Origin: a virus
Taxonomy: Duplodnaviria > Caudoviricetes
IMG/VR virus record: IMGVR_UViG_3300027741_000085
Coordinates: 1 to 54,249 of that record
DNA: 54,249 nucleotides
Strand: one strand, 5' to 3'
The notes under the pieces: model-generated
Told to the model about the DNA's origin: nothing
The model's input: the letters and a program-made list of their open reading frames with translations, nothing else
The model's database searches: none
Position numbers and translations under genes: made by a program
Shown: positions 10,364 through 54,249 of the stretch, one piece after another
Layout: each line of letters opens with the position of its first letter
How positions within the stretch are numbered: the first letter of the stretch is position 1

Positions 10364-10612
10364 ATGATGCATTCACCATCAGGAATAGAGGTTGCAGTTT
10401 GCCAAGATATTGCGGAGCGTCAGCAAAAGGGTATCGCTAAATATGGCGTGACGGTGGCGGATAATCCGCTGGAATTGCGGGACTGGCTCCAACACGCCTA
10501 CGAGGAGACTTTAGACAAAGCTGTTTATCTGAAACGAGCTATCGCGGAAATGGATAGGGCGAATCAAAACCCATCGCTAACACTTCCCCCACTGCTACCG
10601 AAGTCTGAATAG
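10364..10612 (+). CDS. Conserved phage protein, possibly MazG-like helical
   Basis: RQQKGIAKYG...WLQHAYEETLDKAVYL. Confidence 0.7.
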   Translation: MMHSPSGIEVAVCQDIAERQQKGIAKYGVTVADNPLELRDWLQHAYEETLDKAVYLKRAIAEMDRANQNPSLTLPPLLPKSE

Positions 10613-12396: not shown

Positions 12397-12413
12397 GGTA
12401 ACAAATGAGCGGT

Positions 12414-12728
12414 TTAACCCCAATCATCATCTGCGGGCGGGCCATCATCGTGGCCGCCGCTTTTGTCTTGTCGTTTTTGGACAACATCGAAAAGCTTCAC
12501 CCGCGCGGAACTGCTGCCCTTGTCCGCCATGGCTTTAGCGAGCATAAAAAGGGCGGGATGGAGAATGTCCAAATTGAACTTCAACTCGAGCCACTTGTTC
12601 CCATCGTTGTTGTTTTCGTGCTCCAGTAAAACACCGATGTCTCGGTATTCGACGGTAGGTTTGTCCTTTCCTTGCTGCTGGTAGGAACCGACGGGAAGAC
12701 AGGCGCGTTTAATGATGCGGGTGCTCAT
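12414..12728 (-). CDS. Putative ssDNA-binding protein
   Basis: Beta-rich, with YRDIGVL and an acidic C-terminal tail DDDWG. Confidence 0.5.
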   Translation of the reverse strand: MSTRIIKRACLPVGSYQQQGKDKPTVEYRDIGVLLEHENNNDGNKWLELKFNLDILHPALFMLAKAMADKGSSSARVKLFDVVQKRQDKSGGHDDGPPADDDWG

Positions 12729-13667: not shown

Positions 13668-13711
13668 AGAAACGTATTGTCAACTAATTATCAATGTGCA
13701 AGACTTCGCCC

Positions 13712-15784
13712 GTGCATCCCGTCTTCACTCCTAGCACTCCTGAAAGCATCAAGGCCATGCCGCCACGGATGCCGATGCGCACGTCCCTGCTTTTGGATCG
13801 GCATAATGAGGACTTGCTCGTAAATTACTTTATGGAGCGGCATCAAGGTTGTCGTGATGCCTATGACGCGAGCAATCAAGGCCTGCTGAATCAACGCGCA
13901 GCCCCCGGCTTGGTCGGTGGCGTGATGGACTCGTGGATAGGGATTCGCCTCAAAGCAATGGCGCAATGGAAGGGAGATTTCTCTTGGAGAGCCACCATTC
14001 AGGATAGTGTTTACCAACTTTCCAACAAGAGCCTAAACACCGTGCGCCGCGTGATTCGTGCTGCTGCGGCTAAAGTCGTGGCGGACATCGTGGGAAGCGA
14101 TCCATTTTTTGGATTGATTCCACAAGGGCCGGAAGATGACCCGAAGCTTTGCCAAGACGTGGAACGCTGGGGACATGAACAGGCGCGCAAAGCGAATGCC
14201 CGCCACGTTTACAGGTCTGCCATTTTAGGCGCGCTCATTCGTGGGGAGAGTGTGGTGAAACGGCGCTACAACGTCCATGAAAGCAAGTGGGTGGAGCTCG
14301 TCGTTATCGCCCACACCGCCGAGGGCGAACCTATTGGTGATAGCAAGCGCGGCCCCATCTATCAGACAGATGATTTGATGCCTCATGCTTCTTTGAAGGG
14401 AGTGATGGTGTTGGTTCGAGATCCAGAGACGTTTCTTCCGCCAGATGTGAAATGGCTCGGGGTGCGGATGCCGCGCTCTGAAATCAATCAATCCATTGAA
14501 CTGGAGCAAGTTTACTGGTCTGACTTCTACTGCAACACGACGGAAGAGGACATTCATAAAGCGGACTACATCGGCCAGAGCGCGGATGTTAGCTACTACA
14601 CGATAGCGGACATGGTGCGTGGTCCGAATCTGCTAGACCCTGCGGCGGCACAAGAACTTTTGGATGCTGTAAAAAATCAGCAAACTTCCGTGCAGTCTCA
14701 GAAGTCTCTGCCTGATGCGAAGAAAGGCGAGGACGTAACCCGCCGAGGTAATCTGAAACTGCCTGCGGGTTACATTATCGAAAGTTACGGACGAGTGGAT
14801 GCCGATGGCGATGGTTCCGCCGAAGAAATCTTTGCGGTGATTGAGAAAAATACGGGGCGTCCAGTGTTCTACGATTATCTGAACGCCGTGTTTAAGGACA
14901 AGAAACGGCCTTTTGATGTCATTCGCACGGACCCTGTAGAGGGGCGATGGTATGGCACAGGGCTATACGAAGCGAATGCGCCGCTGAATGAGTTTATTGA
15001 GTTACTGTTCAATCGTATCAACCTGCGTTGCTCCAATGGTGGGCGCATCAACTTCAGTAACCCGCAAGCGACTAAAGAAACGGCTGCGGGTGAAAAGATC
15101 AGCTTTGGTAATCCCACGAAGAATTACACGTTGAACGATGGATTTACGAAGGATGATGCTTACTCCTACGTAATCGCCCCGGAGATCGACGAGAAAGCGA
15201 CGGCGCTCATGCAGATGTGCCTGCAAGCCATCCAGCTAGAGACGGGTGAGATAACCGCCGGCGATGGAAACCTGAGCGGCTTACCGTCCACTAATCTGGC
15301 GACGGGCATTCGCTCACTGGAACGGCAAGCGGCGTCTCTCATGAAGGACATGCTCATGACGCTAAGCCAAGGCGTCAGCGATAGCATGGAAGGCTTTTTG
15401 AGCTATTGCATTGCCTACATGAACGAGGAAGAAGCGTTCAACGTGATGCAGGCGGATGCGCCTAAACTGATCCAGCTCAAGCGGCAGGACGTTCAAAAGC
15501 TGAAGTATCTCTTCCGCTTATTGCTTACCCCATCTCGTGGCGACGAATTACTCGAGGCTAGCAAGCAGCGTATCGACATCGCTACGCAGTATCACGAGTT
15601 GCTGATTACTAACCCCAGCGCTGCGGCTTCCATGCGTTCTTTGTTCATTCAAGAACTTACGGCTTTAGAGACGCAGGACATTGATACCATTCTTCCTCCG
15701 GTCGTGCTGCCGCCACAAGGTGGGGCGTTGCCGCCAGAGTCAACGTCACAGCCTCAACCAACCGAACAAGCGCAAGCAGTTTAA
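13712..15784 (+). CDS. Portal protein (start probably GTG 13712; ORF track start 13694)
   Basis: Size about 690 aa; RPF....DPVEGRWYGTG motif and ATG..L helical C-terminus resemble P22-like portals. Confidence 0.75.
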   Translation: MHPVFTPSTPESIKAMPPRMPMRTSLLLDRHNEDLLVNYFMERHQGCRDAYDASNQGLLNQRAAPGLVGGVMDSWIGIRLKAMAQWKGDFSWRATIQDSVYQLSNKSLNTVRRVIRAAAAKVVADIVGSDPFFGLIPQGPEDDPKLCQDVERWGHEQARKANARHVYRSAILGALIRGESVVKRRYNVHESKWVELVVIAHTAEGEPIGDSKRGPIYQTDDLMPHASLKGVMVLVRDPETFLPPDVKWLGVRMPRSEINQSIELEQVYWSDFYCNTTEEDIHKADYIGQSADVSYYTIADMVRGPNLLDPAAAQELLDAVKNQQTSVQSQKSLPDAKKGEDVTRRGNLKLPAGYIIESYGRVDADGDGSAEEIFAVIEKNTGRPVFYDYLNAVFKDKKRPFDVIRTDPVEGRWYGTGLYEANAPLNEFIELLFNRINLRCSNGGRINFSNPQATKETAAGEKISFGNPTKNYTLNDGFTKDDAYSYVIAPEIDEKATALMQMCLQAIQLETGEITAGDGNLSGLPSTNLATGIRSLERQAASLMKDMLMTLSQGVSDSMEGFLSYCIAYMNEEEAFNVMQADAPKLIQLKRQDVQKLKYLFRLLLTPSRGDELLEASKQRIDIATQYHELLITNPSAAASMRSLFIQELTALETQDIDTILPPVVLPPQGGALPPESTSQPQPTEQAQAV

Positions 15785-22790: not shown

Positions 22791-24275
22791 ATGGCCTCAT
22801 ATACCAAACTCAATGTTCAGACAGTATCCGACATGCTGTCGCAGAACTCCAATGCCCAAGTAACGGCATGGGTGATGCGCGCTTTGCAACTCGGAAAAGC
22901 ATCGTGTGTCTTTTATGACAACTTTATCGGGGGCACCGGCAGCGGTAAGCCCATTATTGAAATGTCCGACATGAACGTGAAAGCGGGTAACACGCTGGTC
23001 GTTCCTACGCTGGCCCGCCTCGGTGGTCCAGGTGTGCAGGGCAACGGTGAGCGCACCGGTCAGGAAGAAAAGATGCGTCAAGGCAGCTTTACGACCAAGA
23101 CAGGCCGCCACTGGTGGGGCACCGCGCTTGATAGCGTCGCCAAGAACGAAACCGTCATCGGGACGCAGTGGGATCTTCTCCGCAATGAAGCCCTTGGGCA
23201 GCTTTGCAATAAGGAGAAATCCGACACCATTCAGATGGAACTGATCAATAACGCCTCAGGTCTGAACACGATCTACGCGAACAACGTTGGCTCCGTCGAA
23301 AACCTGCGCTCCAAGGATTACTTCCTTACCGACACCGTCAGCGAAGGGCAAGAAGTCCTCGCCACAAACGCCGCTAAGGGGATGAACATCCGTAAGAGCA
23401 CCGCTGGCGCTCCTTATCGCTGCTTCACTTACTACCTCCCTCACTTGGGAGCGAGTGCGATGAAGCGCACCACGAAATACAAGGATCTCATCCAATTCGC
23501 GAGTGAACGTGGCGACTTGAACCCTGGCTTCACGGGTGACTTCGCCATGATCGACGGTTGCGGGATCTACTCCGATGAAGTGGAGGATCATGATGCGTAT
23601 GGTCCGGTGGGTTCTCCTTGCCTTCCTCGCGCCCGTTTGGGTGTGGCCATCGCTGCGGGCACTGGCACCTTTGATATTCAAGGGGGTGGCAGTGCGGAAG
23701 GTGCGGCGCTTACGGCTCCGCTTTACTTCCGTTGGTTCAACAATTCGCTTTGGAGCAGCTTCAACGTGACCCGTCGACAGGCGTCCACCTCGACCACGCG
23801 CTATGTGCTGATCAAGAACGTGACGGGCTCTGATGCGGGCAAGTTCGGGATGTATTCCTACACCACGAACAACGGGAATAAGCTGACCATCGTGAACCGT
23901 CTTGGTAGTGCGGCCTCGAGTGCGCGCGTAACCACGCTGGGCAACGTGACTTGGAACACAGGTGTGTGGAATGGTCTGCATACCGACGTTCACCCTGTCG
24001 GTTCCATCGTGATGGAGTGCAACAGCTACGGTCAAACGTTCTGCTATGGCTTCGGCCTTGGTGAAATGGCCGCCGTTGCCGGCCATGCGAACATTGACGG
24101 AACGCTCGGCATCGGTATCCGCACCGAGGAACACCGCAACCACAACATGGACCACGCCATTGGCTTGGAAACGGCTTGGGGTTGCGCGGTTACTCAGCGC
24201 ACGGACGGCCTCGCGAACAACTACATCCTGACGGTGAGCGCCTACAACCCGCCCGGATTACCTAACATCGTCTAA
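22791..24275 (+). CDS. Major capsid protein (DUF4043/N4-gp56-like) with a beta-rich insertion
   Basis: AGNTL.VP...RL.GPGV.G....GQEE.M and F.G....IDG..I motifs; position after the scaffold gene. Confidence 0.8.
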   Translation: MASYTKLNVQTVSDMLSQNSNAQVTAWVMRALQLGKASCVFYDNFIGGTGSGKPIIEMSDMNVKAGNTLVVPTLARLGGPGVQGNGERTGQEEKMRQGSFTTKTGRHWWGTALDSVAKNETVIGTQWDLLRNEALGQLCNKEKSDTIQMELINNASGLNTIYANNVGSVENLRSKDYFLTDTVSEGQEVLATNAAKGMNIRKSTAGAPYRCFTYYLPHLGASAMKRTTKYKDLIQFASERGDLNPGFTGDFAMIDGCGIYSDEVEDHDAYGPVGSPCLPRARLGVAIAAGTGTFDIQGGGSAEGAALTAPLYFRWFNNSLWSSFNVTRRQASTSTTRYVLIKNVTGSDAGKFGMYSYTTNNGNKLTIVNRLGSAASSARVTTLGNVTWNTGVWNGLHTDVHPVGSIVMECNSYGQTFCYGFGLGEMAAVAGHANIDGTLGIGIRTEEHRNHNMDHAIGLETAWGCAVTQRTDGLANNYILTVSAYNPPGLPNIV

Positions 24276-26387: not shown

Positions 26388-27158
26388 ATGGCTGAGAAAC
26401 CACCCGGATTTCGCATGGAGACGACATCACCGCATAGCCGCGATGATCTTCTACATGTCCCTTTCCAAATGGTGGCGATGTCGCCTGATACCCGCCCAAA
26501 TTTGGGTGAGAAGCTAAAAGATATTCGATTTGATGCCAATGCGCGCCCAAGCATTTCTAAATTCTCGGATTGGGTGTTAGTGGAAATTGACAGCGGATCG
26601 CTGGTGTTCGGTCAAAACAATCTTCCTACGGCGGCTTTAGCGCTGGAACCAAGTGATACGTTACATGATCGAGATCATTGGAGCTGGCCGACGGTGATAC
26701 GCGGTCAACCGATTTGGCAACATATTATTGGCACAGGTGGAAACTACTTGGAGACAAGAGTCATTATTGATGAAGTGCCAGAGCAAACGTTACCTACGTT
26801 TTTCCTAACGGAAATCTGGTGGACCACTGAACCTTGGCCGCTGGAATTACTTAAAACAAAGCAACCTCTCACTTCTCCCGTGGTGTGGGGCTATCCCGGA
26901 GCGCGAGGAAGTAGGCAAGCACTCCATGAAACTATCGACACGCCCCCACTAACGATCACTTCTATACGCGGACAAACGGCACCGGTTCATATTCCTTCCC
27001 GTCGTTTTCCTGGCACAGATTTCAAGCATTGGACCCGTTACGTGGTGTCTGATAAACAGCCCAAGATTCGAGGCCGTTATCGCCGTGAACGGCGCACGGC
27101 TATTCCTCCTTACGATTCACGTAAATATCCTAACCCACCTTTTGATTTGAGTTCATGA
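26388..27158 (+). CDS. Hypothetical tail-region protein
   Basis: ORF track. Confidence 0.6.
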   Translation: MAEKPPGFRMETTSPHSRDDLLHVPFQMVAMSPDTRPNLGEKLKDIRFDANARPSISKFSDWVLVEIDSGSLVFGQNNLPTAALALEPSDTLHDRDHWSWPTVIRGQPIWQHIIGTGGNYLETRVIIDEVPEQTLPTFFLTEIWWTTEPWPLELLKTKQPLTSPVVWGYPGARGSRQALHETIDTPPLTITSIRGQTAPVHIPSRRFPGTDFKHWTRYVVSDKQPKIRGRYRRERRTAIPPYDSRKYPNPPFDLSS

Positions 27159-27925
27159 GTGACGGCTATTCGAGTGTAGAAGCCTGGCGACAAGCGGAGC
27201 AAGCGCCTTTTTTCATGGCCCCGAATCAGCGCCAAAAAGGCTTTGGTTCGCGGGTGTTTTTGCAAGCACAGACGCCGCAGGATGAATACCCCTTGGATGG
27301 GTGGGGTAACCCAGGCATTCCGGGTAAAGATGGCGTGTCAAGCAGTGGTGTGGATGGACTACCCGGAAAAGACGGAGTAGACGGAGCAGACGGGACGCCT
27401 TCCACGGTAGCAGGTCCAATGGGTCCACCGGGTTTAGCAGGCGCAAACGGAGCCGATGGCAACCCTTCTACGGTAGCTGGCCCCCCTGGAGATGCTGGTT
27501 CTCCAGGAACTCCTGGGAATCCATCAACAGTGCCGGGACCGCCCGGACCGCCCGGACCACCGGGAGCTCCTGGAAGTGATGGCGGACCCCCAGGCCCCCC
27601 AGGTTCACCTGGAGGCCCAGGAAGTGACGGAAGTCCTGGCGGCGCTGGTAGCCCAGGAAGTCCTGGCGGCGCTGGTAGCCCGGGAAGTCCCGGAGCGCCC
27701 GGAATAGACGGCACGGATGGAAGAGACGGCACGGATGGAAGAGACGGTGTAGGTGTGCCTTCCGGTGGCCATACCGGCCAAGTTTTACGCAAACTTGATG
27801 AATCTCCTTACACATCCGTTTGGGATGAATTGGGTAAAACTATCAACGTGGCAGTGCTCGCCAACGATGGGGTTACAACCATTATTCTACATTTTACCAA
27901 CGGCCTTTTAACCTCAACCTCATAA
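27155..27925 (+). CDS. Collagen-like fibre protein
   Basis: Long interrupted Gly-X-Y repeats, including GPP runs. Confidence 0.9.
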   Translation: MSDGYSSVEAWRQAEQAPFFMAPNQRQKGFGSRVFLQAQTPQDEYPLDGWGNPGIPGKDGVSSSGVDGLPGKDGVDGADGTPSTVAGPMGPPGLAGANGADGNPSTVAGPPGDAGSPGTPGNPSTVPGPPGPPGPPGAPGSDGGPPGPPGSPGGPGSDGSPGGAGSPGSPGGAGSPGSPGAPGIDGTDGRDGTDGRDGVGVPSGGHTGQVLRKLDESPYTSVWDELGKTINVAVLANDGVTTIILHFTNGLLTSTS

Positions 27926-27942
27926 TAATTTAAACTACTCCC

Positions 27943-28512
27943 ATGACATCTTGGAAACATCTTCTTCCTGCCGCCCTGACACCTGCTGAGTGTCAGCAAC
28001 TCATTGCCTACGCTACGACACAGATTCCTGATACTGAAGGTGCGATTGGCTACGGGGGAAAAAACGTGATCGTGAATACGTTTCGTCGGTCGCGACTACG
28101 TTGGTTAAAGCGCGAAGATCCTGAATTGCAATGGTTGTTCACGCGTATGGATCAGTGGGTGATGAGCGCAAACGCTCGAGTCTTTGGCTTTGATGTCACG
28201 GGCAACTTTGAAGTGCAGTTTACCGAGTATCACGGCTCCAACGCGGGCAAGTATGACTGGCATGAAGATAATTCATGGTTGGGCACCACGCCGTTTGACC
28301 GTAAGCTGAGCATGAGCATTCAGCTTTCCCATGCACAGACCTACAGCGGTGGACGCATGGAACTGGCACAGGGGAACCTTGCAGAAGGTGAGTTCTGCAA
28401 CCAAGGCGACGCACTGATTTTTCCTTCCTTTCTGCGCCATCGCGTGCTGCCCGTAACCAGCGGCGTGCGTTATTCCCTCGTCTCATGGTGGCAAGGGCCA
28501 CGACTGCGTTGA
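27943..28512 (+). CDS. 2OG-Fe(II) oxygenase (prolyl-4-hydroxylase-like)
   Basis: WHED...RKLS...FPSF..HRV.PVTSG.RYSLV.W. Confidence 0.9.
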   Translation: MTSWKHLLPAALTPAECQQLIAYATTQIPDTEGAIGYGGKNVIVNTFRRSRLRWLKREDPELQWLFTRMDQWVMSANARVFGFDVTGNFEVQFTEYHGSNAGKYDWHEDNSWLGTTPFDRKLSMSIQLSHAQTYSGGRMELAQGNLAEGEFCNQGDALIFPSFLRHRVLPVTSGVRYSLVSWWQGPRLR

Positions 28513-28535: not shown

Positions 28536-28670
28536 ATGAAAACCCTCGATCATCTCGACTGGCAACAGATCATCAGCATAGAGCCTGACGGGGAAGACGA
28601 ATGCGTGTGTATCGAAGTCACTCACCCTAGCAAGTGCTACATCACGGATGACGGGATCGTGACACACAAC
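28536..28670 (+). other. Orphan intein C-terminal fragment (IntC, 45 aa)
   Basis: Blocks F and G ending in HN, followed by Thr+1, directly after the start Met. Confidence 0.8.
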
Positions 28671-31600
28671 ACGACGGTGAACACCCCATCTTTGCAAATG
28701 GGGGCTGCACAGGAGAATCCAAATGCTGCATTGCAGGATAAAGCTATTCGTGGTATAGATGAGGCACTCTATGGAGACTCCCGCAAAGAAAATCAGCAAC
28801 GGAGGCGTGGTCACACCGGAAACGATGCCCGATCTTTTAGCCGCGCCGCGCTCCAAGACGAACGCCGAAATAAGGGCGCAGGCGGAGCGCGCGAGGAGCT
28901 GGCGCGCGACACAGGCGCAACGCGAAGAGAAGAAGCCGCTCGTCTCGTAGATTACGCACGGGATAACGGCTTCCTCATTGAGAAGATGCCGGAGCAATGG
29001 AAGCCCTACGCCGAGGGTGATGTGGGCGGACAAGAGCACCATGTGTGGATTCCAGAACAAGGAGCGCGGGTTATCAAGCTTACAACGCTGAGCAAACGCG
29101 GTGCCGACATTTTTGGTATGAACCCTGTGCCCTATCAAGGGAAGTGGGACTTGGACACGAAGGGAGCGACCGCTTACCGCTATCTTCAGCGTCTCGAAGA
29201 CGGAAACCAGACTTTCGGGGATGATCACATTGTGCATGGTGTCTGGAATGATCGTGGAGATGTCCACCTTCTTACGAGTCAGCGGGCCTATGATGGGGAA
29301 CTGCCTAGCAATCTTCCCGAGGGACTCGCAGCAGCCGAAGAAGCGGCGGAGAGCGACCGACGCACGCAAGATGTTGCCGAGGCGTTTGCTAAACAAGGCT
29401 TTGTCGCTCTAGATAACCGCACCTATTACCGTCCTTCCGACAATACAGCCGTCTTTGATGCCCACTTAGCAAACGTCATGTGGGTTACTGGAAAAAGCGG
29501 AGTGCGTCGCCTAGTTCCCTTTGATGTCACGACCATGCATCCCGTGGGCAAGCTCAAGGAGAATTTAGCTCAAGCAGCGCAGGCTGTTGCCGAACCCCAA
29601 CGTCTCTACATGGCCGCCGCACAAGCTGCGGATGAACTCGCCCGTATCAATCGCGAAGCTGGCGCCGCCCGCGTGATCAAGGATGAACTTGAGGAAAAGG
29701 GCCAGCCGGCGAAGCAAATGACCGGAGTGAAGGAGTCGGCAGCCGCCGCTCTGCGTGGCATCTTTGCTGGGAAGTTTGATAAGATGGAAGCCGCCGCCCG
29801 TGGTCTTGGTGACTTGGTGCGCGGGAATGACATTGAACAGCACTTCTCGGAAGCCGCGCTCAATGACTACATGGATAAGGTGCGCCAGTCGGTAAAGGAA
29901 AGCTTCGGCTCGCCTTCCTACTGGCATAACCGACAGAACCGGAAACGTCTCCAGCGCTTCAGTGATACCTTGCTGCCTGTCGCGGCGCGCTTGAATGCCA
30001 CGGGGATTGATCCAACGGGCTTCACGTTCTCCGACTTCGACATGCGCGTGGGCACGATCTTTGAAAGTGACCTCAAGAAAATGAACGCTAAGCCGGGTGA
30101 CATGATCCCGTGGAAGGGCGCGAGTGGCATGATGGAAATGCTCAAGGTAGGGCCGCTCATCATGGACCAAGGCGTGAACGCCCGTAGTTCCAAGAATGGG
30201 CGTTATACCCTGCTCCGCCACATGGCTGCGGATACTCAACAGATCATCTATGACCACTTCAAACAAGAATTCCCTGAAGGCGCGGCGTGGTTAGATCAAT
30301 GGATTGATCCCCTGCTACGGGATGCCACGCAGACGGGGCCGGGTAATGTGCAAGTGCCTGTGTTCAATCGCCACGCGCTGCTCAAGAGTTTTAATGACTG
30401 GTCGCCAGAACTGAAAGCGCTCTTTGGTAGTGAACCCCTGCCAGGCATCACCGGAATGGAAGGCTACACCCCGGACGTGATGGCGCAGAAGGGGCTGATT
30501 AACAGCATCGGTGCTGCCTTGAACGGCAATAGTTACCTGAATCGATTCATGTCCAGCGCTCGCAAATTCAAAGCGGGTGACTTACGCGAAGAGGGCAACG
30601 TCAAGAACCTTTTCGACGGCTTTACGCAGCGGGCCATGGAATCGCATCGTGAGAAGATTCGCCTCAAGACACGGCGCGACATCATTCAGAAAGCCGCCCG
30701 GCCAGCGAACAAGGTTCAACCGGAAGACTTGCGCTCTGGCTTGTTCATTCCCCTCGATGACACGTTCAAGAAGCTTTATGAGGCGCATGTGATCGCCTCT
30801 GGCCTTGATCGTGCGAAGTTCCCCGTGCTCACGCAATCTCTCAATCCTGACCAGAAGAGCGCCTTGCAAAAGCTCTTTGCTGATATGTATCAGCTCTATG
30901 GGAACGGCATGGTGATTCATCGCGATATTCACCGCCAGCTTGTGCTGGGTGCCGCCATGACCCAGACAGAGAATAGCCTCACTAAAGCGCTGTCATGGAT
31001 CATTGGACGACGTAACCGTAACGTTTTAGTAGAGTTGGGCACGTATGCCAATAATTGGAGAGGTAACTTTGTGCTGCAACCCGTGGAACTTATGAACCGG
31101 GTGAACCTTGCGATTGTGAACGGATTGACGGCTCCGTTCAGTAGCAAGGCCAAGGATGAAGGTGAACTAGCCGCTCGCCAAGTAGCTGAGCTCTTCAAGG
31201 GCTTCTTTGCTGATCGCCGTATCTTCGACCTCTGGACACTGAATAACGGTTTAGGGGCGGGGATTGGGAAGATTCGTCCATTTGTGCCGCAAGAAGTCTT
31301 TGGCGACGGTAGCAATCTTAGATATGACGAGGATTTTCGAGACAAAAGCGTGCTCGGTCATTTGAAAAACCTCGACGTAGGCGCGGCGTTCCTGCAAGGC
31401 ATCCGCTACGGGAACATCGATACACATCCAAAGATGAGTAACACGTATCGGCTTCTCCGGGCAGAAGCGGCGCATGTGGCCGCCCGTCAGAAGATTCCCA
31501 ACGCCAAGCGTGAAGCCTTCATCAATGATTGGATGCTGAACGCTCATAAGGATAATCCCCTTGCCTTCCTGCGAGCGTTCAAGGCTAGTCAATCCCGGTT

Positions 31601-33047
31601 CATGGACTATGAGAACGTCCCTTCGTGGATGGACCCTACGCAGTCGGCTTTGCCCCTGAATGCTAGTGACAACGCTCGTCATTGGGAAAAACTGCTAAAA
31701 AGCGCCACGTTCCCGTTCATCCGCTGGAACTACAACATGATGCGTCAAGTCTATCATCAGAGCTTTGGCGCGCTCATCAATGCCACGCAAGGCGCGCAAG
31801 AGGGCGACTGGAGCAAGGTGCGTTCTGAAGTGGCAAACCTCATGACGACGGCGGCTCTAACGGGTGTGGCTTCCTATCTTATTGGTGGTGGCGGTGGGGA
31901 TGATGACAAGGAGCTTTCTCTAGGCACAAATCAAGATGCTGAAGGTAAGTATCTGCCTAAACAACTGCGCAGTGGTAGCCGATTGAATTGGGCCTCTATT
32001 ATGCGTAGGCTTACGGGTAAGCCAGCTACAGATGACTATAGCGTTGAAGGTTTAGATCATAGTGCGAATGATTTATGGTATCGCTACAAACAAGACCCAT
32101 GGTTGCCTCAAGCCATCATCCTCGGTTTGCTTGCTCGAGGCCGTGCCGATGAAGCTTACAAAGCGGCTGGCGATCTGGGCACCGATTACTTTTTAAGTTT
32201 TGGTGTGATTGGGAATACTATTCCAGGTCTGCGCGCTGTTCTAAATCCTTATACGGCGGATCAGAACTATAGTTATGCAGCAACAGGCACCGCTATTGAT
32301 TTGGCCATCTCGCCGCTTGTGCCAACTCGGTTGATTCAACACATCAGTAAGATTATCGACCCTGTGACCCGACAGGAAGCACCGCGTGTGTTGCCTCGCA
32401 GTGAGGGCAAGACCAAGAAAGGCTGGGAGGATTATCAGCCTGGACCACTCGAAGCATTGAAGATGCGTATTCCAGGCATGAGCAAAGACTTGCCTGCTGC
32501 TGGCACTCTTACACAGGGGGAAGCGGGGAACTTTGATCCTGAAGCATGGTTACGCAATAAGACCAGCACGCTACGCACCCAGCTTAATAAAGGACTGATC
32601 ACGAAAGAGCAGTTCCGCCAAGCCGCCGGCGATGCCGTCAACCAAGCCAAGGAACTTGCCGCCAACAAGCTGAGCCCTCCCCAAGTAGAGAAGCTCTATG
32701 CCGACATGGGCATTAATCAGACTCCCGATGATAAAAAGCGGGTGAGCGGCGTTCCCATGATTCCTGAACTGCGCACGCTTCAGGATCTCGGCGTAGGCAA
32801 GGAGAGCGTGAGAACCTACGTCAGCAAAGATAGCAAAGGCCGTGATGTAACCAAAATTACCGCGCCAAGCCCTGATACAATAACTGTCGCCGATCCGCGC
32901 TTAGAAATCCTTAAAGCACTTACAGGAATTAACGTATCTTTGATCCCCACAGGGCGCGTGAAAGCTGCCGTTCAAAAAGGCGATTTCTACAAGACCCCGT
33001 GGAAACCTAAGCAGGCGTTGACGGGTAAGGATTGGTTCAAGAAGTAA
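28536..33047 (+). CDS. Giant polyvalent virion protein: N-terminal intein C-fragment, PolyVal-type kinase and large C-terminal region
   Basis: CVCIEV...YITDDGIVTHN/T at residues 1-46; GGQEH.VW...RVIK...DAHLANV...PFD kinase-like motifs; C-terminal region paralogous to the 4450-aa protein. Confidence 0.8.
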   Translation: MKTLDHLDWQQIISIEPDGEDECVCIEVTHPSKCYITDDGIVTHNTTVNTPSLQMGAAQENPNAALQDKAIRGIDEALYGDSRKENQQRRRGHTGNDARSFSRAALQDERRNKGAGGAREELARDTGATRREEAARLVDYARDNGFLIEKMPEQWKPYAEGDVGGQEHHVWIPEQGARVIKLTTLSKRGADIFGMNPVPYQGKWDLDTKGATAYRYLQRLEDGNQTFGDDHIVHGVWNDRGDVHLLTSQRAYDGELPSNLPEGLAAAEEAAESDRRTQDVAEAFAKQGFVALDNRTYYRPSDNTAVFDAHLANVMWVTGKSGVRRLVPFDVTTMHPVGKLKENLAQAAQAVAEPQRLYMAAAQAADELARINREAGAARVIKDELEEKGQPAKQMTGVKESAAAALRGIFAGKFDKMEAAARGLGDLVRGNDIEQHFSEAALNDYMDKVRQSVKESFGSPSYWHNRQNRKRLQRFSDTLLPVAARLNATGIDPTGFTFSDFDMRVGTIFESDLKKMNAKPGDMIPWKGASGMMEMLKVGPLIMDQGVNARSSKNGRYTLLRHMAADTQQIIYDHFKQEFPEGAAWLDQWIDPLLRDATQTGPGNVQVPVFNRHALLKSFNDWSPELKALFGSEPLPGITGMEGYTPDVMAQKGLINSIGAALNGNSYLNRFMSSARKFKAGDLREEGNVKNLFDGFTQRAMESHREKIRLKTRRDIIQKAARPANKVQPEDLRSGLFIPLDDTFKKLYEAHVIASGLDRAKFPVLTQSLNPDQKSALQKLFADMYQLYGNGMVIHRDIHRQLVLGAAMTQTENSLTKALSWIIGRRNRNVLVELGTYANNWRGNFVLQPVELMNRVNLAIVNGLTAPFSSKAKDEGELAARQVAELFKGFFADRRIFDLWTLNNGLGAGIGKIRPFVPQEVFGDGSNLRYDEDFRDKSVLGHLKNLDVGAAFLQGIRYGNIDTHPKMSNTYRLLRAEAAHVAARQKIPNAKREAFINDWMLNAHKDNPLAFLRAFKASQSRFMDYENVPSWMDPTQSALPLNASDNARHWEKLLKSATFPFIRWNYNMMRQVYHQSFGALINATQGAQEGDWSKVRSEVANLMTTAALTGVASYLIGGGGGDDDKELSLGTNQDAEGKYLPKQLRSGSRLNWASIMRRLTGKPATDDYSVEGLDHSANDLWYRYKQDPWLPQAIILGLLARGRADEAYKAAGDLGTDYFLSFGVIGNTIPGLRAVLNPYTADQNYSYAATGTAIDLAISPLVPTRLIQHISKIIDPVTRQEAPRVLPRSEGKTKKGWEDYQPGPLEALKMRIPGMSKDLPAAGTLTQGEAGNFDPEAWLRNKTSTLRTQLNKGLITKEQFRQAAGDAVNQAKELAANKLSPPQVEKLYADMGINQTPDDKKRVSGVPMIPELRTLQDLGVGKESVRTYVSKDSKGRDVTKITAPSPDTITVADPRLEILKALTGINVSLIPTGRVKAAVQKGDFYKTPWKPKQALTGKDWFKK

Positions 33048-36127: not shown

Positions 36128-37285
36128 ATGTTTACGCTGATTCCACGCGGGAAGAAAGGGTTGTTCTCGGCTGTTTGGTGGGAGAAGCAGCCGGATGGGA
36201 CGCTGAAACAGCAGTGGAAGGCTACGGGGACGAGTAATCGGAAGCTGGCTAAGGAGATGGCGGAGCTATGGGTGGAGGCTTCGCAGGAAAAGCGTATTTC
36301 GGAACGATTTAAACAACGCACTTTGGAACTGACTCGACGGCTTTCGGGGCGGTCGGGATCGTTGACGGTTCGGGATTGGTTCAAGAAATGGATTGAGGAA
36401 CGCACGCCCGAGGTGAGGCCTTCAACGCTGGCGTATTTCAAGGGGAAGACACAAGCGTTCATGGATTACCTGGAGTCGGTGAAGATGGCGGATGCGGATC
36501 TCGGAGCCATTGATGCGCGGCATATCCAGGGGTTCCGAGATGCGGACCTGAAGCGAGTGACGGCGGCCACGGTAAATCATTCCCTGAAGTGCTTACGGAT
36601 GGTGTTCAAGGCGGCGTGCGAGCGGGGCTTGATCATGGAAGATCCGACAAAGACGGTGAAGACGTTTAAGAAAAGCACGCAGGAACAAGAGGGCGATGAG
36701 ACGCGCCGCGCTTTCGAGGTGGCAGAACTTCAGGCCGTGCTCAAGGTGTGTAATGAGGAATGGCAAAGCCTCGTGATGTTTGGGGTTTACACGGGTCAGC
36801 GCCTCCATGACATCGCGAAGATGAAATGGAAGCAAGTGGATGTGGCTACGGGAATGATTCATTTTAAATCCAGTAAGACGCGCCGCATTGTGCGGTGTCC
36901 GCTCCCTGCGCCCTTGCATGACTGGCTCCTCACTCAGACGATGCCGGATGATGAGCGCGCGCCCGTGCATCCGCTGGCGTTCAAGGCTGGTTCAAGCACG
37001 TTGTCTGGGCAGTTCGGTGATATTTTAGCGGCGGCTGGACTGCGGAAAAAGATTCCCCGGACAGCCTCAAAAGATCGAGTGCTTACGGGCGACCGACGAA
37101 CCAAGAACGAACTCAGCTTCCATTCGTTGAGACATACCTATGTCACTTGGTTGAAGATGGCTGGCGCATCATCTGCCGTGGCCATGGACGCCGTGGGGCA
37201 TGATTCCGCTGGAATTAATGAGCATTACACGCATGTGGATGATGACACGAAAAAGCGCTTTGCGGACTTGCTGCCAAGATTGTGA
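36128..37285 (+). CDS. int: Phage tyrosine integrase
   Basis: TGQR, K, HSLRH and GH...HY catalytic residues; SAM-like core-binding domain; no IntI-specific insertion. Confidence 0.92.
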   Translation: MFTLIPRGKKGLFSAVWWEKQPDGTLKQQWKATGTSNRKLAKEMAELWVEASQEKRISERFKQRTLELTRRLSGRSGSLTVRDWFKKWIEERTPEVRPSTLAYFKGKTQAFMDYLESVKMADADLGAIDARHIQGFRDADLKRVTAATVNHSLKCLRMVFKAACERGLIMEDPTKTVKTFKKSTQEQEGDETRRAFEVAELQAVLKVCNEEWQSLVMFGVYTGQRLHDIAKMKWKQVDVATGMIHFKSSKTRRIVRCPLPAPLHDWLLTQTMPDDERAPVHPLAFKAGSSTLSGQFGDILAAAGLRKKIPRTASKDRVLTGDRRTKNELSFHSLRHTYVTWLKMAGASSAVAMDAVGHDSAGINEHYTHVDDDTKKRFADLLPRL

Positions 37286-39381: not shown

Positions 39382-42300
39382 ATGCCTAAAGCACCTCGGA
39401 CCCTGGATGATCTTGTCGCTAAAGACCCACTCTCGCAGGGGCTCAAGGCGTCACAACAGCACTCGCTGACGATTGGCGCTCCCCAGGCTGCCGCGCATTA
39501 CGAAAGGTTGGCTTCTCAACGAGCCTCGACGCTGGCGTCTAAGTTACCACCGCCCGCAGCGCCGCAGGCACCTAAAGAACCGACAGCGGCGCAACTGGTG
39601 CGCCAACAGAACGCGGCGACAAAGCAAGAGAACACGGCGACACGTCGGCAGTTCCAGAATGATGCGGTGGCATGGTTCACGACGGCAGAAGGTAAGCACA
39701 TCCCTATCACGGCACCCTCGGGCGGGCGACTGGTCAAAAAAGATCAGACGCCTTATTACTACGATGAAAAGACGGGGCAACCGTATCGCGTGATCGGTAA
39801 TAAAGCCGTGGGCGTAAATGAGCTTGGCGCAGTAAGCCGGAAGGCGAAGCCGGACGGGCTGGTGTATGAACACCTCGCCCAAACGAACTCGAGTAAAGAT
39901 GTGCCCGTGGATGTGAATGAGCAGAATCCACCGGGCATGAAGGAGTTTGAGCAAGGGCTCAAAGAAGATCAGGAGCAAGTGACAAAGGGCGTCGTTAGTG
40001 CAAACGCCAGCGTGACAGCTCACTCCAAAGCAGTCACCCAAGCCAAACAGGATCTGGCCGTCATGAACAAGATCGGCGCGGGAGATGATCCCGTTCATGC
40101 GGCGCTCGTGGAGAAGTATGGGCAAAATCCCGCTACGGAACACGATGAAAGTTCGGGTGAATACACCCCTACCGAACCCACGGACCCCGAAGAACTCGCA
40201 AAGAAAAGGCTGGGTGATATTTACACGCTCGCCAAAGAACAGAAAGCGCAAGCCATCATCGCTCTGAACACAGCGCAAGCGGCTAAGGATTCGTTCTTTG
40301 CAAAGAAAACTGAGCGACTCGCCACGGCGCGGGAAGGCTTCGCTTATGAAGCACGGGAACGCCTTCCCGGAACAGGGAGACTTGCGACTGCTGCCAATGA
40401 TCAGATTATCGGCGTGGTGCCACCGCCACCGCTGCCTGTAACGAAGGAAGATGCGCTGGACCCGGTGCGCGCCGCTGCACAAGCTGCTATCCGCACGGTG
40501 ACCGATGTGTCAGGGCTGAATCAGCGTGTGGATAAGGATGCGCTGCACTTTGATTTCCGTGGGATGCCAACACTTCCGCCGCTTCATATCAAAACGCCAA
40601 CATCGGCCACGGATTCAGCACCAGACAGCGAAATCGATACCGATACGGCCCCCGCTCCTGAAGCACCGATTGCCTATTCCACCTCCGTTCCTGACACCGC
40701 GCTTTTACCCAGAGCCGCTGAATTGCAAAGCTACGCAAAGGCCGCGGGTAAGACAGACTTCCATGCGACTCCCGGCTTGCAGATGCAGGACGACGGGAAA
40801 CTGATGGTGGACATGGAGCCACCAGCGCCCGCAGAAGAAGCGCCTGCGCCTTCCTACCCTGAGAAGCTGTTGAACATGGCGAACGATGCCGTAACAAAAG
40901 CGCAGATGGCCCCATTCGGAGCTGCCGCTGGTTATGTGCAGGACGGTATTAAGGCGCTTGGAGAGGGAATCACGAAAGCCTTTGACCCGAAAACTGGCAA
41001 GCCTTCGCTCGTGCCGACCGAACGCGGGCAACGGGTGTATGATCAATACGGCATTCCTTCGCTGGAAATGCATTGGCAGGGGTCCGAAAAGCCCGGTGCG
41101 CCTGTGTCCCCTAGCCTATTGGCGAACGATCCTTATCACGGATTGCCTGAGTATGCCGCCGCGCCGCGTGACTTGTTCCCTGCGCCTGATTCCCCTTCCC
41201 TGAAGGGGATGTCTGAAGAGGAGATTGCAAAAGCACGCGAAGACGTGACGAATCAATGGCGGGCAAATCGCTGGGAACCAACCAAGACAGCGGACTTCCT
41301 CACACGTTGGAAAGCGGGAGACGATGCCGCGCGCCGTGAGATGATGGCGGAAGTGGATTCACGCCAGAACGATCTTCGCCCTGAACTGCGCCGCTTGGAT
41401 ACCAAGATGCTCTGGGAGACGGGGCAAATCTCCAAGCAGGAAGCGCGCACTTTAGAAAACATCGAAACCCAACGCCTGCCCGGACTGCCAGACTTGGATA
41501 TGCAGTGGGCTGTGAAAGGCGATAAAAACGCCGATGGACCAGCACGGCAGAAGTTCATTGAGCAGTATCTTCGTGATAATCGCAACACCGTGGACTTTGA
41601 TGACGCCACGTTCACCGCGCAGCGGGACAAGCTGTTGGCGGGGGTGCCAAGTGACCTTATCAGCGATGCAGGGCAGTGGATGAAGAACACCACCGCCGGC
41701 GCATTGGGTAGCAGCCCTGGGATGTTGATTGATCAACCTGTGAACATCCTTGTCGCGGGTGCTCATGCCGTGGTCGGTGCCTTGCAAGGCAAGCCGCTGA
41801 GTGGTGGGCAGAAAGACTTGCTCGCCGAGGACAACAAGCGCATGGGCTTGATCGCTGGGCAAACGGGCGATTCCCTCTATAACATGTATGCGCAGACTCG
41901 CGAACGTCTGCGCACGTTGACGCCGGACGGCGTGAATCGATTTGATGAGATGCGTCAGGATCTCGCGGGCATTCTTGCGGATATTGACAACGGGAAGCGC
42001 CCCACGGAAGCCGAGTTCCAAGCCGTGCGAAACCGCATCGCGGACCGAGCCTTAGTCGTGAACGGGGTTGCTGACAAAAGCATCCCACAAGAGCGCGCCC
42101 GTGCTTACTACGACATTGGAAACTTAAACTCCCGTGTCGGTGGCATCTTCGCGCAATACAATGAGACTCGTGACCCGAATCTCAAAGACCAGATGATTAC
42201 GGAGTTGCTCGCCCATCCAGGCGAGATGCAGCGCCGAGATCAGGCTTCGCAATACGCTGACCCGACGATTGCAAAAGAAAGCTGGCTCCGAACCATCGGC

Positions 42301-45300
42301 GAGGCCGAAGAAGCGGATAAGCTGGCGCGGGATCGCTCGGGTTTCATTAATCAAATTACTTCCGGCTATCGCTCCGGCGGTGTGGCTCCATTGACTGAGA
42401 CTGCCGTGGAAATGGCGAGCGCTGGCTTGGAAGGCTGGTTTGCGAAGGCTGCGGAACGCGGGCTTGGGTTGGCTGAGAAAGCCACGATGGAGACAGGGCG
42501 CAAAATGGCCGCTGGTGAAGCCTTTGAACATTGGTGGGAAAAGCTGGGCATCAAACACGCCGCAGAAGATGCGCCGCTTACGCTCGGAGATAAAGCGCGT
42601 AACCTTGCGGTGAGTGCGGCTAAATCTGCGGGCGGGGTAAGCCTTACGGAAGGTGCGGAGGAAATCGTGGGTGGCTTTGGGCAGAAAGAGAATACGGACA
42701 AAGATATTGCGATGCAGGGCTTGGGCGGGGCTTTCGGTGGGCTTGCGCTTATGCCGTTCTTCCATGGGCAGCATTTAGTATCTACAGGAGTAGCTAGCGG
42801 GTTGAATGCCGCTAGCTCCTTCCTTGATAATCGCCGTCAAGTGCTTGCCGATAAAGCAGCGGTGGCGAAGATCGTCGAGACACACAATCGTCTCAATCCA
42901 AGTGACCCGATTGACTTCGACCTCGCGCAGCAGGCTCGTGCTTACCTGCCTTCTCATGAAGTGGTCACGGGTGCGATCAATGCCGCCACTCAGCAAATGA
43001 TGAATGCGGCGGCGCTGCCTGAAGGTCCAGTGAGAGATAAAGCTTTACAAAAAGCCAATGACCTCTGGCATAGCACGTTCAACTTTCAATTCCAGAACGA
43101 GCAAGCTGCGCTGAATGCAGCCAAGGAAATCAACGGCCTCAAAGACCAAGGGCCGGAAGGCGAAGCCCTGCGTAACGTGGCGGATGCTGCCTTGCGGGCA
43201 GTGCAGGACGGCACGCTGACGCCGGACCAATCAGGATGGCTCGCAAACTACCATCTCCCCACGGGTGAGAAGGCAGCTTACTATGCCGAGGGGACCGACA
43301 ACACGGCGCGGCTGAAGGAAATCAACCAGCGCATCACGGAGCTGGAGAAGCAACGCGATCAAGCAAAGCAGAAAAACAAGCTCTCCATCGGTGACTTCAC
43401 GGGCAAGCCGCAAACAATCAAATACGACGCCAGCCAGTGGAACGCCGCGAAAAGTGGCGAACTTGAGTCGCTCAAGAAAGAAGCAGAATCGTCAACTAAT
43501 GTTCCACATGGAACACCGGACAAAGGGCGCTGGATCTTCACGGATGCTTTCCGTAATGCCGTGGCGGAAGTCGCCCCGCAGACTGCGGCAGCGTTCTTTG
43601 ATCAGACCGAGAACCAGCAGCTTGACGCGCATCAACAATTAGTCAACAATGCCACGTCTGGAGCGCCGACAGATACTCAAGCTGCTAAAGCAGCTTCGAG
43701 GGCAGGCGCAACGCCTGGGACGGGCGCGAACTTCATGGGAGTGGAGGGCGTTCCGTCTCAGGCATCTTCTACTTCTGCGCCCTCAGCACCCCAATCTCCG
43801 GCTGCTAGGTCTTTGGTTGTTTCTCCTAGCAGTGGGGAAAACGTAGGAGTCAGTGCGCCGGAACGTGGTTCGGCGGCTGATGTTCGGGCTTCTGCGGTGG
43901 GGAATCCGGTTTCCTCCACTGGCTCCTACACCTTCCCACTGAGCTACACGAGCAAGGAAGGATTGGAGGTAAAGAACACGCCGACTATCAAAGCGGCATC
44001 CCTCAGTGAGGCGAAATCAAAGCAACAGTCTTACGTGGCAAAACTTGAGAAGGTAGGACACACGGACGTCGTGGCTGGTGAACTCTCGCCAGTAATGTCG
44101 AAGGCAACTGGTAAGCAAAGCTTACAAGTTCAAGAACAGGAACAGGAACAGCAGCCTTACATTGCTTTGGATTGGCCACAGCAAGCACAATCATGGAAGA
44201 TTGAGACGCTAAAGGATCTGCTGACGAATGTAGCCAGCACTTACGGCTACGCGCTCGCAGATACGGGTATTCCAACGGGGATGCATGACCGTTGGGGCAA
44301 GGCGCTACATTGGGGCACCAATCTTTACGACAAGCTTGGAGATCGTCCCCCTGGCATTTCCCCTCAAGCGGAAACCATAGGCCATTGGATTGATAACCTG
44401 AGCAACTCAGGAATGAAAAGGGAAATCCTTTCACGCATGAGTGAAGGGGTAAACGCGGGCAGTGTCACGGGCGGTTATCTGCATCGCGTGTGGTTCGGTC
44501 ATGATGCGCTTAGTAACATGGGCGACATAGTGAGCAAGTTCGGTGTTAGCTCTGTGCCTCACTACTTTATGGCGTTGTTCAAGGACAGCACCACAAAGAG
44601 CGGCATTCCTCTCCCTGGGGTGCAGATGCTCGTGCGCTCCGGTGCCGTGTCTGACAAGCTGGCGACGAAGTGGATGTCCGTGACCCTGCCCGGCATGTTC
44701 GGCGCTGGCATGGCCATCTATGGCACGCTCCGCCTTGCCCGAACGCTGGAAGGTGGAAAGCTCACGAAGACTAAGGCCGTGCTCGCCACGCTCGGCGTAG
44801 GCTTCAAGGTCATCGGTGGGGCCCTTCATGCGCAGCCGTTCCTTGTGCTTTCAGGGCTGGCAGATGCCGCGCTTTTGATTACGCACTTAGGTGACATCAA
44901 GCGCGTTTTTGCGGCTACCTCCAAAGAGGAATTGAATACTCACGCGGCAGAAGTGAAGCAGGAATTTAAGCAATCCAGTCAGAGTCAGCCTGTGGCAAAT
45001 GATAAAAAAAATGTTACATTAAAAGATGATCTTTATCCCAAAAACCATGAGCCGGGAAGAAGCTCTGAAAGCTCGGTTGAACACGTCCACGGGCAAGACC
45101 GTGGAGCAAGTGACACGCAGCGCGGACGAGCACCACTGGCAGACGGCGGAACCCAAGTATCTAATCGCGCCGGACAAGTTGCAGGAACCGAAACGCCATC
45201 AGCACTTTCAAGAGGTAATGACGGCACGCTTCAAGGGCAATCTACCGAAGGATCTCGGGAAGGGACCGCCGCCACCGGTGGCTTACCTGCCCTTAATTCT

Positions 45301-52734: not shown

Positions 52735-52768
52735 TGACGAAATGAGGTTCTCAGGTTTTAATGTAATC

Positions 52769-53209: not shown

Positions 53210-53218
53210 CAGAATACA

Positions 53219-53920
53219 TTAACGAAGCCTTCCAGATTCGACATTATGTCTGTAAAGTTGGCGTCCGATAGACTTGAGTTTTAACATGCCACTAGCTGTA
53301 AAGTTTGGAATACAGCCCGTTAATTCATGTTTCAGGTGTTCAGCGTTTTCTGAGAAAAGCTCTAGGTTATCTGGATCGTTGTTGGCAACGTCCTTGTCTT
53401 TGTGATGCACCACTTCTAGCCGCGTAAGATATCGGCCTAGTTTTTTTTCCATCACGAGCCTATGCTCTCTGACATACCCGTGTCGGTTTGCAAAGGGATG
53501 GTCTGGAGATTTGATCAAAATATAGCCATGTTTATCTACTGTTTTCCCGCCGGACCAAAAGGGATTTGTGTCTAGTTTCCAAGCTTTACCACGTAGTGAC
53601 TTTAGTCCTAGCTGCCTCATCCTATTTTCAATAGTGGGCTGAGAAAGCTTTAGCCGCTTACCTATTTCTGTGGTTGATAGTTTCTGATTGATGAGGCTCT
53701 TGAGTTCATCTTCATCAATTTTCGCTTTGCGCTGCTGGTGACGTAGATGGACAGCTTCGCTTCTTGATCGTATTTTTACTCCTCGATCGGCCAAGCATTG
53801 TTTAATCCTATAGGTCGAGATTTTGTATTTGTTGGCCAACGTCACCATGTCAACATTCGCCAGATATTCCGTCTCAATAGAAAGCGCTATTTCGGCTTGG
53901 ATAGGAGGTGGGAGGGCCAT
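53219..53920 (-). CDS. HNH homing endonuclease with N-terminal HTH repeats
   Basis: GY....P.HP....GYV.EHRLVME..LGR.L...EVVHH.D....NN..DNL. Confidence 0.88.
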   Translation of the reverse strand: MALPPPIQAEIALSIETEYLANVDMVTLANKYKISTYRIKQCLADRGVKIRSRSEAVHLRHQQRKAKIDEDELKSLINQKLSTTEIGKRLKLSQPTIENRMRQLGLKSLRGKAWKLDTNPFWSGGKTVDKHGYILIKSPDHPFANRHGYVREHRLVMEKKLGRYLTRLEVVHHKDKDVANNDPDNLELFSENAEHLKHELTGCIPNFTASGMLKLKSIGRQLYRHNVESGRLR

Positions 53921-53990: not shown

Positions 53991-54249
53991 ATGTGTTTGC
54001 ACCTTTCTTGTTTTTCACCTTTCAATCACAACGTCAAAACTAGTGAGGATGAAGGCAGTAGTGGCCACGCGCAGCCCCTTCGCTCTCATGTGCGGACACC
54101 CCACGGCTTGCGCACGATTGGCTCTCTCCGGTTGGGTGAAGACCTCTCCAGTCCTGATGGTGAGCCTTCACAGGTGAAAGGCATCTATCCGCAAGGAGTG
54201 CAAAAGGTCTATCGAGTCACCTTGGCAAATGGTAAAAGCACCCGTGTTA
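53991..54249 (+). CDS. Partial ORF: short leader then intein/Hint N-terminal region starting at Ala (54069), truncated by the window edge
   Basis: Manual translation ...GH/AQPLRSHVRTPHGLRTIGSLRLGEDLSSPDGEPSQVKGIYPQGVQKVYRVTLANGKSTRV. Confidence 0.75.
   Translation, partial: MCLHLSCFSPFNHNVKTSEDEGSSGHAQPLRSHVRTPHGLRTIGSLRLGEDLSSPDGEPSQVKGIYPQGVQKVYRVTLANGKSTRV

Follow-up and report, generated by a model that had tools for sequence, protein, structure and literature searches.

The window analyzed here is an entire virus record of IMG/VR (IMGVR_UViG_3300027741_000085; 54,249 bp), which is classed as linear, has a CheckV completeness of 69% and represents a tailed phage. At positions 28536..33047 of its plus strand lies an open reading frame (ORF) for a protein of 1503 residues, here named P0001, whose N-terminus reads MKTLDHLDWQQIISIEPDGEDECVCIEVTHPSKCYITDDGIVTHN and continues with TTV. 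The first 45 residues (28536..28670, plus strand) constitute the C-terminal half of a split intein (IntC): a custom hidden Markov model (HMM) built only from 15 cis-splicing inteins recovered the P0001 N-terminus with E=1.6e-17, and the runner-up among the 1616 six-frame pieces had E=0.2. Residues 1-100 of P0001 gave no Pfam or NCBIfam match, even at E<=10, and in the PDB the only sequence that IntC matched, at E=0.1, was that of the VidaL split intein (6vgv), at its C-terminus. IntC contains a Cys at position 25 (28608-28610) and ends in Thr43-His44-Asn45 (28662-28670), with Thr46 in the +1 position. It cannot be extended upstream, because an in-frame TAG is present six codons before the ATG of P0001 and the preceding gene, which lies immediately 5' of IntC and outside the intein (27943..28512, plus strand; Pfam E=2.3e-12), codes for a 2OG-Fe(II) oxygenase. 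These comparisons confirm, at the level of sequence, that an authentic intein C-fragment makes up residues 1-45 of P0001 and that Thr occupies the +1 position. The preliminary description of this DNA had already proposed such a C-fragment followed by Thr, had placed it in class 3 on account of the Cys in block F and the Thr before His-Asn, and had noted an upstream oxygenase gene free of any N-terminal intein half (IntN); the profile search, the cis-splicing relatives, which mostly start with Ala and carry the block B Trp, and the Pfam match bear it out on all these points.

A TBLASTN search with P0001 residues 10-46 recovered 21 loci (9 viral and 12 bacterial) with 29-70% identity, at every one of which the match sits 369-957 residues within a longer ORF; in each of the eight ORFs read over their whole length it closes an uninterrupted intein that contains a LAGLIDADG endonuclease domain. 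The host genes of these relatives resemble helicases, terminases, PhoH and DnaB. The fifteen closest cis relatives (L001-L015; 49-70% identity to IntC), several of which are near-duplicates, are inserted directly after the P-loop Lys or the PhoH Arg. Their inteins start with Ala in 13 of 15 cases, with Phe in L003 and with Ser in L014; in L008 and L009, where the run begins at Leu, this Leu occupies the position at which the others have Ala. All share the [DE]HLW signature in block B, a single invariant Cys in block F and a THN end followed by Thr or Ser. Class 3 inteins were reportedly defined by Tori and Perler. In the accessible text of PMC7891396 they are characterized by a first position without a Cys, Ser or Thr nucleophile together with Trp at N3:12, Cys at C2:4 and Thr at C1:5, and by that definition the Ala start, block B Trp, invariant Cys and THN of the cis relatives are marks of class 3. 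The Cys that is invariant in 15 of the 15 relatives aligns with Cys25 of P0001, making the latter the putative branch nucleophile. The VidaL residue aligned with Cys25 is one that we take to be the block F Asp of class 1 inteins.

The preliminary description had regarded IntC as an orphan fragment; this no longer holds, as the ORF of a partner starts at position 53991 of the same contig. A profile made from residues 1-74 of each of the fifteen cis inteins had exactly one match in the six-frame translation of the window, at 54069..54248 of the plus strand (E=5.9e-22), 25.4 kb downstream of IntC. The match reads AQPLRSHVRTPHGL... and runs off the 3' end of the contig, so that the window holds the first 60 residues of the IntN, beginning with Ala1 in AQPLRSHV (54069..54249, plus strand). 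In front of it is a putative N-extein of at most 26 codons from an ATG (53991..54068, plus strand), which ends in EDEGSSGH; 28 codons separate the IntN from the upstream in-frame stop (53982-53984). An exact 40-nt pattern from the window end matched one contig of the JGI metagenomes, L023 (2045 bp), the reverse complement of which is identical (100%) to window positions 54123-54249 over 127 nt. L023 extends the IntN ORF by 39 codons and a stop, namely TESHLW and 33 further residues ending in PVMRD. The completed IntN comprises 99 residues, with Ala1, a Thr-x-x-His and a Trp, in an ORF of 125 codons, and its end coincides with the site of the endonuclease domain in the cis relatives, i.e. the canonical split site. 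In the PDB the IntN piece from L023 matches the gp41-1 split intein (E=1.1e-3). The two halves are hence encoded by separate ORFs, one starting at an ATG after an in-frame TAG and the other closed by a stop 99 residues past Ala1. With TIGR01445 and PF14890, a six-frame search of the record yielded no IntN candidate; it was the custom profile, rather than the curated HMMs, that exposed the IntN-terminated ORF from 54069 onward, with its completion in L023, and so the kind of ORF that the preliminary description had proposed to look for does exist.

Taken together, Ala1 (54069-54071, aligned with position 1 of the 15 cis relatives), the Trp of TESHLW, which is located beyond the window in L023 and aligns with the [DE]HLW of the relatives, and Cys25, Thr43, Asn45 and the +1 Thr indicate that the canonical class 3 marks are all present across the two halves. 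A word-based search returned no protein of 47-151 residues having words in common with the IntN ORF, and a search of IMG/VR with this ORF returned one cis intein only, in a RecA-like gene (L022). A free-standing HNH homing-endonuclease-like gene (53219..53920, minus strand; PHROG HNH endonuclease, E=5e-26; Pfam HNH_3) is divergently oriented to the IntN ORF, with 70 nt between them. A longer N-extein was considered and rejected in view of this gene on the opposite strand and the in-frame stop at 53982-53984; likewise, an intron upstream of the IntN ORF was rejected, no Rfam family being detected at E<0.1 over 52600-54249. Past the IntN, L023 contains small ORFs as well as, on the opposite strand, a gene for a tyrosine recombinase.

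The Logan contigs of the probable source run place this IntN in more than one setting. A contig of 8882 bp (depth 10.4) follows the window sequence through 54116. Another of 5334 bp (depth 8.1) ends in the segment 54063-54116 with 2 differences; the 30 letters preceding that segment differ from the window and read in frame ...QSQEEEQPSSGH before Ala1, an alternative N-extein with the same Ser-Ser-Gly-His end in different codons. A third contig of 2075 bp continues from 54087 with a depth of 17.3, approximately the sum of 10.4 and 8.1. From the differing upstream contigs and the summed depth it follows that the IntN and about 1.9 kb beyond it (the small ORFs and the recombinase gene) occur in two contexts, within one genome or in two strains, and the depths fit a repeat in one genome and two strains equally. 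Such a layout raises the question of whether the terminal IntN derives from a different genome, joined to the contig by mis-assembly at a shared repeat, which would leave the IntC of P0001 without a partner in this phage. The contig does end within a segment common to two paths of the assembly graph, and a second freshwater sample has a 153-bp contig identical to 54081-54233 and little else of the 950-nt stretch (share 0.16). However, the 8882-bp contig carries the unique upstream sequence to 54116, 48 nt into the IntN, with the window contig reaching 54249, and the unique N-extein enters Ala1 in frame with a conserved junction. We accordingly hold such an artifact to be highly improbable.

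The 86-residue ORF of the window IntN was compared by phmmer with 1.84 billion representative sequences, which gave 3565 matches at E<=0.001. Among the best 150 of these the alignments start at about query residue 6-32, mostly 19-27, and hence the N-extein is not conserved. The proteins collected contain 199 IntN domains, 158 of them with an IntC in the same chain, 17 with a longer tail in which no IntC was detected, 4 cut short and 20 ending 90-125 residues after position 1 without an IntC. Twelve of the latter 20 split forms (P0019, P0031, P0039, P0047, P0055, P0060, P0069, P0072, P0101, P0122, P0127 and P0138) have a Gly-His or Gly-Arg junction, which resembles that of the window IntN and is neither the P-loop nor the PhoH site; P0059 is a thirteenth split form with a frameshifted tail. 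Their N-exteins differ greatly in size (27 residues in P0055, 191 in P0039, 1715 in P0019 and 2437 in P0069), and two of them carry domains of polyvalent proteins, LPD37 in P0101 and ddrB-ParB in P0069. Ten IntN-ended proteins are encoded on contigs of 2.3-65 kb, for which reason most of their stops are probably real. In a FastTree phylogeny of the first 80 intein residues (197 rows, domains shorter than 78 residues being excluded) the window IntN belongs to a 13-member clade (support 0.88) whose other members comprise 7 split forms, 4 cis forms and 1 unclassified form, a grouping that, with 80 columns, is weak evidence. In IMG/VR nothing matched an alignment of P0047, P0060 and P0072. A search for the Gly-His junction with a degenerate DNA pattern had 0 matches, and the pattern for the Gly-Arg junction had 3, all of them cis inteins. 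In TBLASTN searches of phages, all matches to P0019 and P0101 were to cis inteins or to LPD37 domains in DarB-like proteins.

Two further architectures were seen among these sequences. P0122 (184 residues, partial) consists of an IntC ending in THN, then an 18-residue extein ending in SGSGH and then an IntN, which by its order of elements has the predicted topology of a middle piece or a cyclizing unit. P0015 (729 residues) and P0052 (683 residues) resemble terminases and contain, besides one complete class 3-like intein, a second IntN located at the extreme C-terminus; on account of these, this type of intein may have split forms in packaging genes, too.

The existence of large N-exteins in the family bears on the identity of the donor in the phage. 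The split intein could be the same and its real donor a larger polyvalent module encoded elsewhere, either in genome sequence that was not sampled or in a relative circulating alongside, with the short ORF being a decapitated copy left after the HNH cassette replaced the sequence upstream. The different in-frame N-extein with which the 5334-bp contig enters the same IntN would be accounted for in this way, as would the summed depth of the 2075-bp continuation, and the HNH gene does adjoin the short ORF; moreover, the record is only 69% complete, and relatives with the Ser-Gly-His junction have N-exteins of 190-2,400 residues. Yet only 30 nt of the N-extein of the second contig were read, the depths are equally compatible with two strains, and P0055, with its 27 residues, is another form with a short N-extein. 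Further, the short ORF keeps Ser-Ser-Gly-His with different codons, which suggests that it is itself under selection to splice. We regard a larger donor as a rather unlikely alternative.

The association of the two halves was approached with a structure model of the 81-residue IntN piece of L023 and P0001 residues 1-60, alongside three controls. The runs gave ipSAE values of 0.66, 0.64 and 0.64, as against 0.00 for the best control, with a partner predicted local distance difference test score (pLDDT) of at least 61 and agreement between runs in at least 80% of the contacts; the mark used was reached by 51 of 78 solved complexes and by 2 of 108 mismatched pairs. The model supports binding of the two halves to each other, although, split-intein complexes having already been solved, the result may reflect likeness to these only. 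The IntN is basic (net charge +5) and the IntC acidic (net charge -8). Charge complementarity as a trait specific to the split form was rejected, as the cis relatives have the same acidic C-region.

The only full-length homolog of P0001 found by the word-based search, P0002 (1642 residues, 52% identical, from a 57,208-bp NCBI contig), begins with the same IntC fragment. Between the two proteins, 25 of 37 positions are identical in residues 9-45 of P0001 (68%), 7 of 10 in residues 46-55, 25 of 75 in residues 56-130 (33%) and 68 of 213 in residues 131-343 (32%), and the identity in residues 344-1503 is 57%. Within the N-terminal 340 residues, then, the intein piece shows the highest conservation, and P0002 retains the Cys equivalent to Cys25 as well as His44-Asn45 and Thr46. 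The pattern points to purifying selection on IntC and argues against a decaying remnant, since it is the intein piece that is the best-conserved part of the N-terminal third of P0001. Other searches recovered no further member of the P0001 family: TBLASTN with P0001 against 50,697 phage records gave no match, a scan of IMG/VR gave no relative with P0001 alone and cis inteins only with the P0001/P0002 alignment, a scan of GTDB genomes gave cis inteins only, and the word-based search limited to residues 1-60 of P0001 gave only P0153, a cis intein in a primase-helicase.

Just after the splice junction of P0001 (window 28686-28700) there is a motif of the form Pro/Ser-x-Leu-Gly/Gln-Met-Ala/Gly/Val, which may be a processing site; the same processing-like motif occurs three times in P0002 (residues 52, 331 and 396) and is absent from the 4450-residue protein described below and from ten IntN-ended relatives.

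It is conceivable that no splicing takes place at all and that the 45 residues are a tolerated remnant or have been reused, either for C-terminal cleavage driven by the Asn alone or as a non-covalent docking tag for an IntN-bearing protein. The tiny N-extein leaves splicing with little evident purpose, curated HMMs recognize neither half, and the Pro-Ser-Leu-x-Met motif after the junction, if it is a protease site, could allow the N-terminus to be trimmed anyway. Against this stand the catalytic residues, which are all intact in both P0001 and P0002, the conservation of the segment above everything else in the N-terminal 340 residues, the existence of a complete and intact partner and the docking of the halves in the model. 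A loss of splicing is in our view improbable.

Beyond the intein, the C-extein of P0001 (28671..33047, plus strand) starts with Thr46 and reads TTVNTPSLQ... Residues 131-184 match Kinase-PolyVal below threshold (17.7 bits against a cut-off of 27); the kinase domain attributed to this protein in the preliminary description therefore stands only as a weak match. Residues 344-1503 (window 29565-33047) are 67% identical over 1200 aligned positions to residues 3262-4450 of a 4450-residue protein of the same phage (49165-52734), so that one C-module of about 1160 residues is present twice in a single phage, as paralogs. In the larger protein (39382..52734, plus strand), a polyvalent protein with InPase and RadC-JAB domains that both score above the Pfam cut-offs, the C-module forms the last ~1190 residues and is fused directly to a long multi-domain N-part, and in P0001 it follows IntC and a segment of ~300 residues with the weak Kinase-PolyVal match. 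Its Atlas neighbors are viral clusters, one of them with LPD38; PHROGs gave no match for P0001.

On this evidence we consider it probable, with moderate confidence, that P0001 is synthesized as a precursor headed by the C-half (45 residues) of a naturally split class 3 intein, the IntN of which lies 25.4 kb downstream, and that the two halves undergo protein trans-splicing. As far as the conserved residues allow judgment, the intein on this polyvalent-type phage protein is real and intact, is naturally split and conforms to canonical class 3. The basic IntN and the acidic IntC would associate into one Hint domain, upon which Cys25 of IntC would attack the His(-1)-Ala1 bond, giving a branched thioester; the acyl group, i.e. 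the N-extein, would then move to Thr46, cyclization of Asn45 would release the intein, and an O-to-N shift would restore a peptide bond, joining ...GSSGH to TTVNTPSLQ... Both nucleophiles are carried by the P0001 chain. The expected outcome in this phage would be the removal of IntC and the addition of a short leader of 26 residues to P0001. These steps follow class 3 chemistry as set out in the accessible parts of PMC7891396 and PMC10559147.

Several points weigh against this interpretation. The curated intein models remain below their cut-offs on both halves, the best being TIGR01445 with 15.6 against 24.5 bits on the L023 piece. The last 39 codons of the IntN come from another contig, probably of the same sample, and thus do not constitute independent support. 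The N-extein has at most 26 residues and is not conserved among the relatives, and expression of the small ORF is presumed. P0002 is the only other protein of the P0001 family found to start with an IntC, our searches elsewhere gave no verified pair of IntN and IntC on one contig, none of ten IntN-ended proteins being encoded on a contig of the same length as that of P0002, and with two upstream contexts of the IntN the relevant partner may not be the short ORF of the window. In addition, a Thr at +1 entails an oxyester intermediate, which is slower than Cys chemistry.

The preliminary description had further proposed that the intein joins a separately encoded N-terminal module to P0001; an IntN partner does exist, but its N-extein is a mere 26 residues, and large modules are found only in database relatives. 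As the visible donor adds only these 26 residues, the practical effect may be no more than the removal of IntC, or else the relevant donor may be the second IntN-bearing gene of the sample. The general role of the system is likely to be the joining of effector modules to an IntC-bearing carrier after translation, since in the family this IntN type closes polyvalent modules of 190-2,400 residues. A more speculative extension, which we think unlikely as it stands, is that of a constant IntC carrier (P0001 with its C-module) taking up, after translation, interchangeable N-terminal effector modules, all of them closed by one and the same class 3 IntN; this cassette, with the HNH and tyrosine recombinase genes on its flanks, would move between modules and phages, so that co-circulating variants would differ in the N-extein on an identical IntN.

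The rest of the record is that of a phage with a large terminase (10564..12423, minus strand), an SU10-type portal (13694..15784), a major head protein (22791..24275) and an integrase (36128..37285). A collagen-like fiber protein gene (27155..27925) is directly followed by the 2OG-Fe(II) oxygenase gene (together 27155-28512), a pairing that would fit a prolyl-hydroxylase acting on the collagen-like protein. Between the gene of the 4450-residue protein and the HNH gene an ORF of 163 residues (52718-53209) has a lipoprotein-like signal, with a hydrophobic stretch and then a Cys, and no family match. A Shine-Dalgarno sequence precedes none of the 29 gene starts inspected in the window, and its absence from the IntN ORF is for this reason uninformative. 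The regions upstream of 37320, 38274 and 39382 have in common AACTAA followed by ATGTGGCA-like words. A 34-nt element has three copies, at 10310-10343, 36066-36099 and L023 3-36 (100%, 97% and 100% identical), in two cases 14-28 nt ahead of a tyrosine recombinase gene, a different one each time, and L023 stops 2 nt past its copy; the element could be a phage promoter or a recombination site.

Only two solved structures were matched by sequence, gp41-1 (6riz/6qaz) and VidaL (6vgv), both of them natural split inteins from metagenomes; neither is known to come from a polyvalent protein. The former uses a Cys at position 1, i.e. class 1 chemistry, and the latter is split after ~16 residues. In the fractured genes reportedly described by Dassa et al. 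in 2009, a split intein divides the phage gene for an essential enzyme, and between the two adjacent halves lies a free-standing endonuclease gene. The present system resembles them in having a split intein with a free-standing endonuclease gene nearby, but its halves are 25.4 kb apart, the HNH gene precedes the IntN ORF, the 26-residue N-extein has no matches and the intein resides in an accessory protein of several domains. With the cis class 3 LAGLIDADG inteins of helicases, terminases and PhoH it has in common the AQPL... start, the [DE]HLW, the invariant Cys and the THN followed by Thr; those, however, are single chains of ~330-400 residues with an endonuclease, inserted after the P-loop Lys or the PhoH Arg, whereas here there are two genes, no endonuclease domain and a Gly-His junction with the N-extein. 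The closest precedent, going by the accessible text of PMC7891396, is AceL NrdHF (Hoffmann et al. 2020), likewise a class 3 intein that is naturally split; it comes from a metagenomic contig of phage-like character, has Ala1, an internal Cys nucleophile and a Thr before the terminal residues, and is likewise split at the insertion point of the homing endonuclease (98 + 48 residues there, 99 + 45 here). It differs in its deviant MCT triplet and in being without two conserved His, where the present intein has the canonical Trp, Cys and Thr and a His-Asn; it also resides in a ribonucleotide reductase gene fractured with a GIY-YIG gene between adjacent halves, in contrast to the polyvalent-type host, the halves 25 kb apart and the HNH gene upstream of the IntN ORF on the other strand seen here. 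As for the host, the weak Kinase-PolyVal match of P0001, the InPase and RadC-JAB domains of its 4450-residue neighbor and the LPD37 and ddrB-ParB domains of the IntN-ended relatives recall the polyvalent proteins known from phages and conjugative elements (Iyer et al. 2017), as these appear in the accessible text of PMC5512222.

The words 'intein' and 'splicing' are absent from the main text of PMC5512222, where modules are joined only by gene fusion and released by peptidase domains. Going by the available part of PMC7891396, no split form was present among 1701 class 3 inteins in nr, and AceL NrdHF, with its atypical MCT triplet, is described as the first. A survey of actinobacteriophages (10.1101/2025.01.02.630785) mentions, in its accessible part, a single split intein (phage Zeenon) and no more than four host proteins with class 3 inteins; PMC7824862 has a single mention of inteins, unrelated to polyvalent proteins. 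Our literature search found no report of an intein in polyvalent-type phage proteins, and the present one would be the first case found in such a protein, as opposed to an enzyme of replication or packaging. Protein ligation relies mainly on split inteins, and natural split class 3 forms are nearly unknown according to the accessible text of PMC7891396. Our observations point to split class 3 inteins forming a family in which the Trp-Cys-Thr is canonical and both nucleophiles are on the 45-residue half, and of which standard HMMs miss both halves. They also suggest that some very large multi-domain phage proteins are assembled after translation; if true, such assembly would alter both the annotation of the genes concerned and the reading of their modular evolution.

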